Shown in pieces: positions 8,158 through 34,103 of a DNA stretch of 42,869 nucleotides (position 1 is the first letter of the stretch; every line of letters begins with the position of its first letter). Origin of the DNA: Acinetobacter phage vB_AbaA_LLY; sequence record OQ503491.1; one strand, written 5' to 3'. The notes below the pieces were generated by a model. That model was not told the origin of the DNA and ran no database searches. It saw only the letters and a list, made by a program, of their open reading frames with translations. Position numbers and translations under genes: made by a program.

Positions 8158-8501
8158 TAACATCATAGTCGTCATTAAACCCCTTGAATTCGGTGGAAAC
8201 CCAGACCGGGCAATACCGAGCGAAGCCTCAACTGAGGAACGTGTAACGACTATTCCGTAAGGAAGTACCAGCAAGTGCTGGGAAGCGGGGGGCCTTGACT
8301 TACTGGTCAAGTGAAGATATAGTCTACTCTGCATGGGAACATGCAGTATCTACTACAAGATTTGAGCGGTAGCCGTACTTACTCCAAGAGTACGTGCCGA
8401 TTTATCCCAGCCTCTGAGAACTTATCAGACGCAGGCAACCGTCGCTGGGGTAACAAGTAGTAGGTAGGGGGAGAGGTAGCGTCCTCCCTTTAATATACAG
8501 G
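8158..8501 (+). mobile_element. Group I self-splicing intron (ORF-less, 344 nt) in the terminase large subunit gene
   Basis: Joining 8157|8502 restores the T7 gp19-like sequence PDD|IETTKNGLTQTQREQLL (T7: ADD|VEIPSNSATMGAREKLW). Exon ends in U. P1: exon 5'-UGACGAU / intron IGS 5'-GUCGUCA with U·G at the splice site. Intron ends in G. Conserved R element GUAACGACUAUUCC and S element GAAGAUAUAGUCU are present, with a P8-like hairpin CTTGAC-ttactg-GTCAAG. Confidence 0.8.
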
Positions 8502-9788
8502 ATTGAGACCACCAAGAACGGTTTAACGCAAACCCAGCGTGAGCAGCTGCTGATGATTTCGAAAGACTTCGCAGCTATCTGTACGCACGGGGATACGCTG
8601 TACCTGGGTACACCACAGACCAAGGACAGTATCTATAAAACCCTGCCGGGACGTGGCTTCGAGGTCCGCGTGTGGCCGGGGCGCATTCCGTCTGTTGAAA
8701 TGGAAGAGCGATATGGAAGTACACTTGCTCCTTATATACTGGAGCTCATTGGGCGCGGCTATAAACGCACCGGCTTCGGCGTCGACGGGACGCTAGGCGA
8801 GAGCACGGACACCGGGCGCTACGACGAGGATGCACTGATTGAGAAGGAGCTGGACTTCGGTCCGGAAGGCTTCCAGCTGCAGTACATGCTCGACACCACC
8901 CTGTCAGACCAAATGCGTACGCGCATCAAGCTCTCGGATATGCTAGTTTACTCCGGTAGTCAGGATTCCTCCCCTGAGACGTTCTCCTACATTGCGGACC
9001 GCAGGTACCTGTACCAGCACGAGCATGAGGGGATTATGGGTCAGCAGATGTACTTCCCGGCATTCTACGGGGATATGCACCTGCCGTATCAGCATAAGGT
9101 GCTGGTGGTAGATCCGGCCGGCTGTCGCGGCGATGAAGTTTCATACGCTGCTGGTGGTGCTGCGAACTCGTACATTCACCTATTCTCAGTAGGTGGCTTC
9201 CAAGGAGGTATCAGCGAAGAGAACATTGATAAACTGATTGATCTGTGCGTAGAGTTAGACATCCCGGACATGGTGGTGGAGAGCAACATGGGGCACGGCA
9301 CCGTGTCTATGCTTATTCTGAACCGGTTACGGGAGCGGCGTCTCGTCGGTATTGGTGTACGGGACCTGAACAACTCCACGCAGAAAGAGCGTCGTATCAT
9401 CGACACAATCAGCCCAGTTACTCGTCGTCACCGCCTGGTGGTGCATGAGCGTGCTATTCACGACGATATCAGCACCTGTATGGCGTACTCACGCGATAGG
9501 CGTTGGCTGTACTCTGCGTTCGCGCAGTTGTCCGGTATCACGTACGACCGCGGTAGCCTGGCGAAGGATGACCGAGCAGATGCAATCGCCATGATGGTGG
9601 CTACGCTGAACGGGCATCTGGTGGAAGATGAGAAAGTAGTAGCTGAGCGTGAGTCTGAGAAGATGGCTCGGGCCTTCATTGAGAATCCCCTGGATTGGGC
9701 ACAGAATAAAGTGTCTAAGGGGCTCCGGGGTGTAGCTGCACGGTTACAGAACCGGGGCAGAGGTAAACAACATAGAGGAAGAAGATAA
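8502..9788 (+). CDS. Terminase large subunit, exon 2
   Basis: ...REQLLMISKDFAAICTHGDTLYLGTPQT aligns with T7 gp19 REKLWTLVQEFAALLKP...VIYLGTPQT. The C-terminal nuclease region is conserved. Confidence 0.85.
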   Translation: METTKNGLTQTQREQLLMISKDFAAICTHGDTLYLGTPQTKDSIYKTLPGRGFEVRVWPGRIPSVEMEERYGSTLAPYILELIGRGYKRTGFGVDGTLGESTDTGRYDEDALIEKELDFGPEGFQLQYMLDTTLSDQMRTRIKLSDMLVYSGSQDSSPETFSYIADRRYLYQHEHEGIMGQQMYFPAFYGDMHLPYQHKVLVVDPAGCRGDEVSYAAGGAANSYIHLFSVGGFQGGISEENIDKLIDLCVELDIPDMVVESNMGHGTVSMLILNRLRERRLVGIGVRDLNNSTQKERRIIDTISPVTRRHRLVVHERAIHDDISTCMAYSRDRRWLYSAFAQLSGITYDRGSLAKDDRADAIAMMVATLNGHLVEDEKVVAERESEKMARAFIENPLDWAQNKVSKGLRGVAARLQNRGRGKQHRGRR

Positions 9789-31527: not shown

Positions 31528-33319
31528 ATGATTCACGCACTGAATACGGTTGTAGTATCAGAGGAAGCACTGGTGAAACGCCAGCTGGAGCTTGAAGAGG
31601 CCTATAAGATTCGCGGAATCGAGCGGGCACGTAAGCTGATTACGGACGCATTGCAGAACGGTGGGATTATGAACCTGCCGATGACGCAGCGTATGCTCAC
31701 CTCGGCATATGAGGTGGCTGCTGCCGCTATCGATGAGATGCGAAATGTCAAAGCCCCGGGCATTGGTGGGAAGTACCGCCGGTTCTTGCGCTTAGTCCCC
31801 TTGGATGTCCTGACCACCCTGAGCCTGTGCACAATGTTTGAGGCATTCAGCGTCGCCCCCGGCGAGTCCGCTAGTCGCCGCCAGACTGCACAGGCGGTAA
31901 TGTCCGCACTGGGCCGGAACGTACAATCGGAGCTGCTGGCACTGCAGTTACGCAACGTAGCCCCGGCGTACATGGACCGTGTATACGAGTACCTCACAGA
32001 GCGTCGTACGAAGTCCCCTACGCACATCCTGCGTACGCTCCGTGCCAGTGCCGAGAACGTGCACTATGGGCACGAGCCTTGGACCAATGCCCAGAACATC
32101 TCCGTAGGGCGTCTGCTGTGTGCCGCAGTGTTTGAGACGGGCCTGTTCCAGTGGAAGAACTGTAGCGGTAATCTGAGCATGCTATACCCCGCAGACAACG
32201 TTATGGAAGCATTCCAGCAGTTAGTGGAATCTGCCGACACTGTGACGATGAAGCCGCCTATGCTGGTACCGCCGGTGCGGCACACTACTCTGTGGGATGG
32301 TGGGTACCTTACCCCTATCGACAATCGCGGTACCTATCATAATTCTCACATTGACCGCGCGCGTCTCCGCGAAGTAGCGGAAGCATTTAAGTCCGCGGAC
32401 GGAATCAAGAAGGCGCTTAATAAGGCACAGGAAACCCCATACCGCATTAATAAGCGCATACTGGAACTGGTGCAAGAAGCACGGGCCCTGGGTGTTGGGA
32501 TAGGCATGCCTCGCTCAGTACCAGAGCCGAAACCGGAGTGGTATCTGGACGGGGTTCCGAAAGAGAACTACACCGAGGAAGAGCTTGACCGATTCGGTGA
32601 GTGGAAGACGCGCATGTCTCTATGGTATAGCGCTGACCGTAAGCGTGTATCGCAACTACGCAGCCTTCTGACTACGTTGGAAATGGCGGAGGAATTCAAA
32701 GATGAGAAAGCCTTGTACTTCCCGACTTGTGTGGACTGGCGTTACCGCCTGTACTTCAAGTCCTCGCTGCACCCCCAAGGTTCGGATTTGCAGAAAGCCC
32801 TTCTTGAGTTTGGCAGAGGAAAACCTCTGGGTGAGCGGGGACTATTCTGGCTCAAGGTACACGTCGCCACATGCTTTGGTTATGACAAAACCTTATTCGA
32901 AGACCGCGCAGCTTGGGTTGATGCGAACTTTGCAGCGCTCGGAGAGCTTGTGGTTTCACCGTTTGATTGCCCTGCTTTTGCCGAGGCAGACAGTCCCTGG
33001 TGTTTTCTGGCCGCCGCTATCGACCTGGTTAATGCTGTGCGTTCTGGATGCCCAGAAGAGTATATTAGCCGAATCCCGGTGGCTATGGACGCTACAAACT
33101 CAGGTGGACAACATCTCTCAGCGCTTCTGAGAGACCCTGTGGGCGGTCGTCTGACGAACCTGTACTGGGAGGGTAACGATAAGAAAGCGGACCTGTACAT
33201 GGACGTGAAGCGCCGTACAGACGAGAAGGTGATACTGGACCTGGACAAGGAGGATTTCGTTATCCAGAGCACGTACTGGAGAGAGAACGAAATCACCCGC
33301 AGCATGACCAAAAGACCGT
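31528..33319 (+). CDS. Single-subunit phage RNA polymerase, exon 1 (ends ...ITRSMTKRP + first nt of a Ser codon)
   Basis: T7-RNAP-like throughout. The ORF runs to the conserved TKR(S/P)(V/S)MT motif, then a TAA within the intron. Confidence 0.8.
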
Positions 33320-34103
33320 TAATGCACATCGGCGGTCTATAAACTAGGTGAATTCAGGGGACGGCTAGAACAGCCAATCCTGAGCGAAGCTACTACTGTG
33401 CGGCCTTATAGGAGGTCGTATGGAAACTAGGCAGTGCACAAAATGTAACGAAGTTAAACCTCTATCATCCTTCTCTAAAGGCACGCGAAGCGCAAACACG
33501 TTCCGCGGTGCCAGGGAGGTGGGCAAAGTAATTTATAAACCTACGTGTAAAATGTGCGATGCCGCCTACGCCAAGGCGTGGCGGGCAGCAAACCCAGATT
33601 ATCAGAAGAGGCAGAGAGCTAAACGAGCAAGGGTCGAGGTCTTGTCTATAGACCCTATGCTTAAATCCTTCGTGTCTTGTCGGGTGGCAGATGCAAAGGC
33701 TAGGGCAGCAGCTCGTAATTTGCCTTATGACTTGGATAGGGAATACATGTTGGCTATATGGGACGGGGTGTGCGCACTGTCCGGGGTGCCGATTAATTGC
33801 CACAAAGGCAGTATGTACATCGGCTCCATTGATAGAGTTAACCCCGAACTTGGTTATGTTAAGGGGAACGTGCAGTGGGTATCTTGGCAAGTTAATCGGG
33901 CTAAGGGAGAATACTCGCTGGAAGATTTAATTACAATGTGCCGCGCAGTAGTAGAACGTGCAGAGACTATCCGAAAGGAGTAGGGCCAAGCGGCCCGAAG
34001 CGCCTAGCCCCTTTAGTGGGTGATGATATAGTCCGACCTGTATGGGGACATACAGCAGCCGTAAGGCGGGGGATACCTAGCGAGTATCCCCGAACACTTT
34101 TTG
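33320..34103 (+). mobile_element. Group I intron (784 nt) in the phage RNA polymerase gene, encoding a Zn-finger/HNH-like endonuclease
   Basis: Splice 33319|34104 gives ...ITRSMTKRP-S-MTYFYSATV (T7 RNAP: VTRSVTKRSVMTLAYGSKE; mitochondrial RNAPs: VMTNVYGVT). Exon ends in U. P1: exon AGACCGU pairs with intron GCGGUCU (U·G). Intron ends in G. R element GCAGAGACUAUCCG, P8-like GGGCCAAGCGGCCC, S element GAUGAUAUAGUCCG, and the hairpin CTGTATGGGGACATACAG. The 5' region GAATTCAGGGG...CAATCCTGAGCGAAGC is homologous to the other two introns. Confidence 0.75.
33420..33983 (+). CDS. Intron-encoded endonuclease (N-terminal CxxC...CxxC zinc ribbon; C-terminal HNH/His-Me-finger-like motif)
   Basis: CTKCNEV...CKMCD zinc ribbon, then GSIDRVNPELGYVKGNVQWVSWQVNRAKG, which resembles an HNH/endo VII-type beta-beta-alpha motif with a trailing Asn/Lys. 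Good RBS (AGGAGG) before the ATG. Confidence 0.55.
   Translation: METRQCTKCNEVKPLSSFSKGTRSANTFRGAREVGKVIYKPTCKMCDAAYAKAWRAANPDYQKRQRAKRARVEVLSIDPMLKSFVSCRVADAKARAAARNLPYDLDREYMLAIWDGVCALSGVPINCHKGSMYIGSIDRVNPELGYVKGNVQWVSWQVNRAKGEYSLEDLITMCRAVVERAETIRKE

Follow-up and report, generated by a model that had tools for sequence, protein, structure and literature searches.

Three subgroup IA2 introns in the terminase, DNA polymerase, and RNA polymerase genes of Acinetobacter phage vB_AbaA_LLY: probable separate acquisitions from one mobile intron family

Introduction

Several homologous group I introns in a single lytic phage represent the classic situation of phage T4, as described by Shub et al. 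(1988; cited in PMC2988022). A similar situation is found in Acinetobacter phage vB_AbaA_LLY (sequence record OQ503491.1; 42,869 nucleotides, the whole of which was analyzed and is called the window here): several homologous introns lie in essential genes, and the endonuclease genes differ between the introns, as in that account of T4. Unlike in T4, the interrupted genes are those for the terminase large subunit, the family A DNA polymerase (pol), and the T7-type single-subunit RNA polymerase (RNAP). The genome of about 43 kb is circularly permuted and KP34-like (Drulisvirus-type), with the phiKMV gene order. Its best match is Klebsiella phage RCIP0099, with 95.5–96% identity over 89–91% of two query segments.

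Introns in phage terminase and polymerase genes have been reported repeatedly. Those in DNA polymerase genes are known from Pf-WMP3 (I-PfoP3I), phiI/W31, SPO1/SP82/Bastille, and phiL7 (PMC3428280). The Pf-WMP3 intron belongs to subgroup IA2, for which P7.1 and P7.2 linked by G-U-A are the literature criterion. It possesses P1 to P10 except P2, starts with UAA, and carries an HNH open reading frame (ORF) that starts in P6a and runs into P7–P7.2 (PMC3428280). Its site between Pro and Asn, at position 674 of E. coli Pol I, is shared by the introns of SPO1, SP82, and Bastille (PMC3428280). Compared with this published description, the pol intron of the window fits on every listed point, and its site probably corresponds to Pol I position 674, as judged from the motif ...GRLSGSNP|NLQN. 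Relative to the published pol introns, its sequence is a new variant, carried by a KP34-like phage. Searches of the literature for a phage single-subunit RNA polymerase gene carrying an intron, and for introns of Drulisvirus or PPWS1, yielded nothing specific.

A first-pass annotation of the window had described the three introns as paralogs of one another and had proposed intragenomic spread of a single intron family or, in brackets, repeated acquisition. Our analysis favors the bracketed alternative. The three introns are very probably P2-less variants of phage subgroup IA2, within the T4 td-like family, that are related as members of this family and not as mutual copies, each having entered the genome independently.

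Results

Identification of the three introns

The three group I introns occupy positions 8158–8501 in the terminase gene (intron 1), 24015–24713 within the gene for DNA polymerase (intron 2), and 33320–34103 in the RNA polymerase gene (intron 3), all on the plus strand. Their ends were placed by the reading frame, the U·G rule, and the terminal G. After removal of the introns, the exons can be aligned gaplessly with the intronless alleles of RCIP0099, HF0522, and Henu2_3, and the spliced genes are uninterrupted ORFs of 618 (terminase), 812 (pol), and 822 amino acids (RNAP). All three introns end in G and possess a 6-bp P1 ending in U·G (exon strand/guide: GACGAU/GUCGUC in terminase, AACCCU/GGGGUU in pol, and GACCGU/GCGGUC in RNAP), showing that the guide of each intron fits its own gene. 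The first-pass annotation had given the same boundaries and had also stated that each copy has its own guide, and the sequences that it quoted are present where it placed them.

Only the terminase intron (68.2 bits) exceeds the gathering score of Rfam RF00028 (50 bits). The pol intron (36.1 bits; E = 2e-7 for a 901-nt stretch and 9.6e-6 window-wide) and the RNAP intron (30.3 bits; E = 1.2e-5 for the region and 5.4e-4 window-wide) score below it but remain significant, their scores being lowered by the ORF insertions of 480–560 nt in P6a. Hidden Markov models (HMMs) made from the three 5' modules and from the three 3' modules each found exactly three matches in the window, and neither the window-wide RF00028 E-value scan nor the module HMM scan detected a fourth group I match there.

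Mutual similarity compared with similarity across the family

The cores of the three introns, compared without P1 and without the ORFs, are similar far above chance: global alignment gave z values of 13–14.5 (300 shuffles), and the nhmmer E-values among them ranged from 1e-18 to 1e-26. The core identities are 0.72 (terminase and pol), 0.63 (terminase and RNAP), and 0.70 (pol and RNAP). These values are equal to the mean core identity of the family (0.725 over all 300 pairs) and to the cross-site identity between unrelated genomes (0.68–0.72). In addition, the cross-site identity within single genomes (the window, PPWS1, ECO104, ZH4, and Henu2_3) lies inside the range found for the same combinations of sites when the two introns come from different genomes.

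Each intron of the window is 0.81–1.00 identical to introns at the same site, or at a site offset by 1 nt, in other phages. The core of the terminase intron is identical to that of ZH4 (1.00), 0.99 identical to that of ECO104, and 0.87 identical to those of ZX22 and Henu2_3. The pol core shows an identity of 0.93 to the N4-like PhAPEC5 and to Pectobacterium phage PPWS1, and of 0.91 to Pseudomonas phage phiB1_1. The RNAP core shows 0.99 to HF0522 and KPN234, and 0.81 to the RNAP intron of PPWS1.

The first-pass annotation had suggested a phylogeny together with known phage IA2 introns. In a neighbour-joining tree, which rests on only about 150 aligned positions, a clade of the window introns, or of any two of them, was recovered in 0 of 200 bootstrap replicates. 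When 88 3' modules from IMG/VR were added, the other two window introns ranked, for each query, from 21st to 100th in similarity among the 112 other family members. Over the 3' half, the identity of the RNAP intron to T4 td and nrdB (0.60–0.61) is on a par with that to its two genome-mates (0.62–0.63). Paralogs that arose within a genome are expected to be each other's closest relatives, and the window introns are not. The claim of paralogy therefore stands as far as membership of one family of homologs is concerned and fails as a statement about closest kinship. Taking together the core identities, the bootstrap values, the within- and between-genome comparison, and the ranking among 112 relatives, we rejected intragenomic paralogy.

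Spread of the family among phages

Each intron was used as a BLASTN query against 50,697 phage records, and relatives at the same gene site were found in other phages for each of them. A further sample, consisting of the 5' and 3' modules of 22 introns in 19 loci, showed that the family occupies at least eight sites: three or more positions in pol, RNAP, two sites in terminase, helicase, and primase-helicase. The hosts of these phages are Klebsiella, Pectobacterium, Acinetobacter, Pseudomonas, Xanthomonas, Aeromonas, Erwinia, and Escherichia, and the phages sampled include an N4-like, a T4-like, and a Pakpunavirus. All of the 22 further introns carry the 5' module and the 3' hairpin by which the first-pass annotation had grouped the three window introns. 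The exact 3' motif GATATAGTCNNNNCTGYATRGNRAYATRCAG is present in at least 120 IMG/VR contigs, with approximately 0.001 chance matches estimated. Several IMG/VR stretches, each of up to about 15 kb, contain two to four copies of the 3' module; two contigs (L060 and L022) contain four modules each within 7–12 kb, indicating dense clusters of family introns in uncultured phages.

One of the individual matches is Pectobacterium phage PPWS1 (Kotilavirus), which is phiKMV-like. Its pol gene is interrupted at the Pro|Asn site used in the window by an intron with an HNH ORF, whose BLASTN match (76.9% identity over 94% of the query) spans the whole intron, and its RNAP gene has an ORF-bearing intron as well; unlike the window, PPWS1 lacks a terminase intron. 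The RNAP introns of PPWS1 and Draal03 lie 1 nt downstream of the site in the window (CCC GU|U versus CCG U|CG). The Xanthomonas phages phiL7 and L13.2 are also among the BLASTN matches of the pol intron. The terminase introns of ZX22, ZH4, Henu2_3, and the ECO104 4-5-2 record occupy the site of the window intron. Some records, which bear the names "Listeria phage LM 4-11-1/4-14-1", "Salmonella phage S.Kent 1-2-1", and "Escherichia phage ECO104/ECO121", gave identical coverage, identity, and score with both intron queries, as if they were the same KP34-like sequence, and their host labels are probably unreliable; OR844702.1 carries the flag UNVERIFIED_ORG.

Architecture and subgroup

The order of the helices is the same in all three introns: P1, P3, P4, P5, P6/P6a, P7, P7.1-GUA-P7.2, P3', P8, P7', P9, P9.1, and P9.2, with no P2 recognisable in any of them. 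P5 has 4 bp and an AGAMC loop, P9 has 7 bp and a GNRA cap (GGAA, GGAA, and GGGA in introns 1, 2, and 3, respectively), and the P9.2 loop common to the family is UA(A/G)CG. The characteristic element of subgroup IA2 is present in each intron, as GGAA-GUA-CCAGC, GAGA-GUA-CACUC, and GGA-GUA-GGGCC, respectively. The sequence GAUAUAGUC and the hairpin after it, with which the introns had been thought to end, constitute P7'–P9; a further 155, 48, and 48 nt, containing P9.1, P9.2, and the 3' splice region, follow in the terminase, pol, and RNAP introns, respectively.

The minimum free energy (MFE) fold of the ORF-less terminase intron has a z value of -4.5 and recovers every nested helix (P1, P3, P4, P5, P6a, P7.1, P7.2, P8, P9, P9.1, and P9.2). 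The covariation analysis that the first-pass annotation had proposed was carried out on 23 distinct family cores and supports this structure: standard pairs occupy 97.7% of the cells, 21 of the 40 pairs show compensatory changes, and none of 500 shuffles reached the observed values, while only 29–41% of the cells were paired in slid-alignment controls. P3, P4, P5, P7.1, P7.2, and P9 all covary (P7.1 and P7.2 in eight of nine pairs). P7 is invariant and thus uninformative. P8 was excluded from the column-wise count, because MAFFT set its length-variant hairpins one column out of register, although each sequence forms its own P8 hairpin by eye. A hand search of the terminase intron for P10 gave only two or three possible pairs and no convincing P10.

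The relationship to T4 is clearest in the 3' half, where T4 td and nrdB match the 3'-module HMM of the family (E = 3.5e-18 and 2e-13, respectively), including GATATAGTCTG..CTGCATGGTGACATGCAG, and share P7, P7.1-GUA-P7.2, P3', P8, GAUAUAGUC, the GNRA-capped P9, P9.1, and P9.2 with the window introns. Their tail, CAG-P9.1-GGG-P9.2(UAACGA/UAGCGA)-GAACAY before the terminal G, is also that of introns 2 and 3. The 5' half of the window introns (GAAUUC-P4-P5 with the AGAMC loop) matches T4 weakly (12.5 bits for P4–P5 of td), and the lack of an identifiable P2 is a difference from the T4 introns.

The similarity is therefore not restricted to the universally conserved core, the outcome that the first-pass annotation had named as a refutation of its claim, since P7.1, P7.2, P9.1, and P9.2 are shared. 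However, this periphery is common to the whole phage IA2 family, T4 included, and thus its presence cannot separate paralogy from family membership.

Positions of introns and exons

All features lie on the plus strand. The exons were taken from the ORF list and from the spliced junctions. In the terminase gene, exon 1 (7588..8157), whose spliced junction is gapless against the intronless terminases of RCIP0099 and HF0522, ends with the P1 exon strand (8152–8157, its last 6 nt). Intron 1, assigned from RF00028, the junction, and the MFE fold, is 344 nt long, contains no intact ORF, and begins with UAA in frame with exon 1. Its guide lies at 8168–8173 and its terminal G at 8501. The ribozyme core (8177..8346), defined by the nhmmer modules and the covariation, consists of P3–P6a (8177–8240) and of P7, P7.1, P7.2, P3', P8, P7', and P9 (8241–8346). 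The P9.1 stem pairs 8350–8356 with 8457–8463, P9.2 is located at 8467–8488, and exon 2 (8502..9788) continues the protein across the junction LLIPDD|IETTKNG.

Introns 2 and 3 were assigned from RF00028, the junctions, the modules, and comparison of the tails. Exon 1 of the DNA polymerase gene (22572..24014, the ORF as listed) ends with its P1 exon strand (24009–24014), and the insertion site lies between Pro and Asn of ...GRLSGSNP|NLQNLP. Intron 2 (699 nt) consists of the guide (24024–24029), the 5' core (24032–24085), the 3' core (24567–24665), P9.1 (24668–24679), P9.2 (24682–24702), and the terminal G (24713), and is followed by exon 2 (24714..25709), placed by the junction. In the RNA polymerase gene, exon 1 (31528..33319) ends with its P1 exon strand (33314–33319). 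Intron 3 (784 nt) splits the bracketed Ser codon of ...TRSMTKRP(S)MTYFY after its first base, within what we take to be the conserved ...TKR..MT.. segment of T7 RNAP beside the catalytic lysine. It contains the guide (33332–33337), the 5' core (33341–33395), the 3' core (33958–34055), P9.1 (34058–34067), P9.2 (34069–34091), and the terminal G (34103), and exon 2 (34104..34780) was likewise placed by the junction.

Intron-borne endonuclease genes

Intron 2 carries an ORF of 178 amino acids (24110..24646) in the P6a loop. Its translation matches Pfam HNH_3 (PF13392) at 31 bits, above the cut-off of 24.8, and the HNH family phrog_7545 at E = 2.7e-49. With a domain above the curated threshold inside a mobile intron, the ORF is predicted to encode an HNH homing endonuclease, and its position was fixed by the module coordinates. 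The ORF starts in the P6a loop, runs through P6, P7, P7.1, P7.2, P3', and P8, and stops within GAUAUAG, such that its last 26 codons (24567–24646) are also the ribozyme core helices P6 to P8 and its stop codon falls within the invariant GAUAUAGUC. A shorter dual-coding stretch is present in intron 3, where the last eight codons and the stop codon of the ORF (33958–33983) coincide with helices P6 to P7.1.

The ORF of intron 3 (33420..33983, 187 amino acids), also in the P6a loop, matches phrog_1035 ("endonuclease VII", E = 1.6e-29) and phrog_3322 ("endonuclease", E = 2.9e-24), with no Pfam match above threshold. Homing endonucleases of the Endo VII motif (DHHRN) possess a central DHDH flanked by CX2-4C and CX2C, and conserved R and N (PMC6083498). 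The translation contains two N-terminal CxxC pairs and the C-terminal ...SIDRVNPELGYVKGNVQWVSWQVNRAKG; the DHDH motif is absent from it, which places it outside this definition. Because of its position and its intron-borne relatives, we regard the ORF as a putative homing endonuclease gene. Sequence searches of the PDB with the two ORFs gave nothing useful, and no match at all for that of intron 3. A common origin of the two ORFs was considered and rejected (BLASTP E = 37).

The terminase intron holds a decayed gene in another loop, P9.1. Positions 10–155 of its tail match the final 146 nt of the terminase intron of ZX22 at 139 of 146 positions, and the latter has an intact, annotated HNH ORF at tail positions 32–550, in the P9.1 loop. 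The alignment thus identifies 8356..8460 as the remnant of the last approximately 35 codons of an HNH homing-endonuclease gene. ZH4 likewise keeps only the 3' end of the gene, and Henu2_3 and ECO104 show other deletion forms.

Two free-standing HNH genes, at 22159–22587 and 25678–26169, lie on either side of the DNA polymerase gene, whose ends they overlap, with matches to phrog_59/6254 (E of approximately 1e-28 to 1e-27) and phrog_99 (E = 4.9e-52). Together with the intron-borne genes, they amount to a heavy load of homing-type nucleases for a small genome. At 30223–31077, one ORF of 284 amino acids combines an HNH domain (residues 30–148) with an endonuclease VII domain (residues 149–283). 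Relatives such as HF0522 encode endonuclease VII as a protein on its own, about 140 amino acids long, and the ORF may have arisen by fusion of an HNH gene to the resolvase gene or by read-through from the one into the other.

Distribution in close relatives and exon flanks

RCIP0099, 96% identical to the window, lacks all three introns, and HF0522 has the RNAP intron only. ZH4 and Henu2_3 possess the terminase intron and, downstream of it, a second and divergent terminase intron that is missing from the window (ZH4 1649–1815 and Henu2_3 36898–37064; core identity of 0.55–0.69 to the others). The second intron of Henu2_3 holds an annotated GIY-YIG gene. In none of the 50,697 records is a coverage of at least 80% reached for two or all three of the query regions. 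About 250 Klebsiella phage records match the exons; coverage of 80% or more is found in three of them for the terminase query and in two for that of RNAP. For the pol intron, no Klebsiella phage record contains a relative.

Comparison with intronless relatives revealed exon mismatches near the insertion sites. In the terminase gene, 6 of the 20 nt just upstream differ, versus 0 of 130 further out; in pol, 10 of 20 nt beside the site differ; and in RNAP, 20 of 130 nt downstream differ, followed by 0 of 150. The mismatches are asymmetric and fall within approximately 20–150 nt of each insertion site. Intronless pol alleles end with ...AACCCG or ...AACCCC at the site, whereas the window has ...AACCCU, the U of which is required for the U·G pair. 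The clusters of mismatches look like the pattern expected of co-conversion tracts.

Discussion

The three introns most probably represent three separate lineages of one family, each tied to its own gene site and circulating among phages of many hosts. By the mechanism known for this family, each precursor mRNA would fold such that the guide forms base pairs with the final 6 nt of exon 1, leaving the U·G at the splice site; an external guanosine would then attack there, and the exons would be joined after the terminal G. Entry into the genome would most likely have occurred by endonuclease-driven homing or by recombination during co-infection, with flanking exon sequence dragged along. Such import is suggested by the sequences of the introns and their flanks. 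The mismatches beside the sites and the different subsets of introns in the relatives led us to propose three separate acquisitions from a shared mobile IA2 pool.

The explanation preferred by the first-pass annotation, in which a single founder gave rise to the copies in the two remaining genes, such as through reverse splicing followed by a change of guide, would account for the common architecture and for the similarity far above chance, and the occurrence of the family at eight or more sites implies that moves between sites must have happened sometime. However, the mutual identity of the three introns is no more than the family average and the between-genome cross-site value, while each intron has far closer relatives at its own site in phages of other genera. 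The tree and the ranking do not unite the three, their endonuclease ORFs show no relationship and are placed in different loops, and the closest relatives of the phage lack some or all of the introns. We therefore regard a spread within this genome as highly improbable. Even less credible is that unrelated or distant introns converged, or were homogenised here by gene conversion. The identical P5 hairpin CCCAGACCGGG of the terminase and pol introns could be taken as a trace of such an event, but PhAPEC5, phiB1_1, Xanthomonas phage L13.2, and Draal03 carry it too, making it a variant of the family and not of the window. In addition, pairs within a genome are no more similar than pairs between genomes, and no tract of identity between the window introns that is absent from their same-site relatives was seen.

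Vertical inheritance deserves somewhat more consideration. Precise intron loss is part of the homing cycle, and a KP34-like ancestor with all three introns could have left descendants of which most underwent precise deletion of the introns; those of terminase and RNAP do recur in a few other Drulisvirus-type genomes at 92–99% identity. Nevertheless, the best full-length match of the pol intron is in a Pectobacterium phage and not in a Klebsiella phage, the introns are rare among the exon-matching Klebsiella phage records, and no record carries two of the three. The concentration of exon divergence at the insertion sites also agrees better with import from a diverged donor than with retention. 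We thus consider inheritance with repeated loss to be unlikely.

Some observations weigh against separate acquisition. RCIP0099 has an ORF-less family intron of approximately 278 nt in its pol gene (about 16371–16648), approximately 300 nt downstream of the pol site of the window. Its core is 0.84 identical to that of the window RNAP intron, the highest cross-site similarity seen, and the intron could be a trace of a site-to-site move within Drulisvirus-type phages. The deep nodes of the tree have bootstrap values of 24–41%, too weak to order the divergence of the site lineages. Ancient transposition between sites must lie somewhere in the history of the family, and it could have happened in an ancestor of this phage group. 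The mismatch clusters could result in part from selection for P1 pairing or for resistance to the endonuclease. Finally, the splicing of the introns and the activity of the endonucleases are predicted from conservation and covariation.

For annotation, the consequence is that three essential genes are split and their conserved motifs interrupted, and that their products should be joined across 8157|8502, 24014|24714, and 33319|34104. Related GenBank records give these genes as two or three separate coding sequences (CDSs). The RNAP-intron lineage can be seen only in the form of split "RNA polymerase" CDSs, in HF0522, KPN234, PPWS1/2, Draal01–03, and Drael01, and the intron is thus already present, unrecognised, in several GenBank records. 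It is possible, though we put it forward only tentatively, that an RNAP-gene intron with an ORF of still unassigned nuclease family, and an Autographiviridae phage with terminase, pol, and RNAP introns together, may not have been described before. In that case, the phage would rely on ribozyme folding to produce its own RNA polymerase, and it would offer a simple system for asking whether splicing gates the early-to-late switch. There is a small chance that the RNAP-site lineage deserves a description of its own.

The introns are new members of a well-known family, and the current understanding of group I introns is unchanged by them. They provide a clear example of the homing cycle in a small genome, with one HNH gene still intact, a second intact gene from a different family, and one that has decayed. 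The pool from which they probably came consists of site-specific IA2 introns that cross Autographiviridae, Schitoviridae, Straboviridae, and Pakpunavirus as well as the genera of their hosts.

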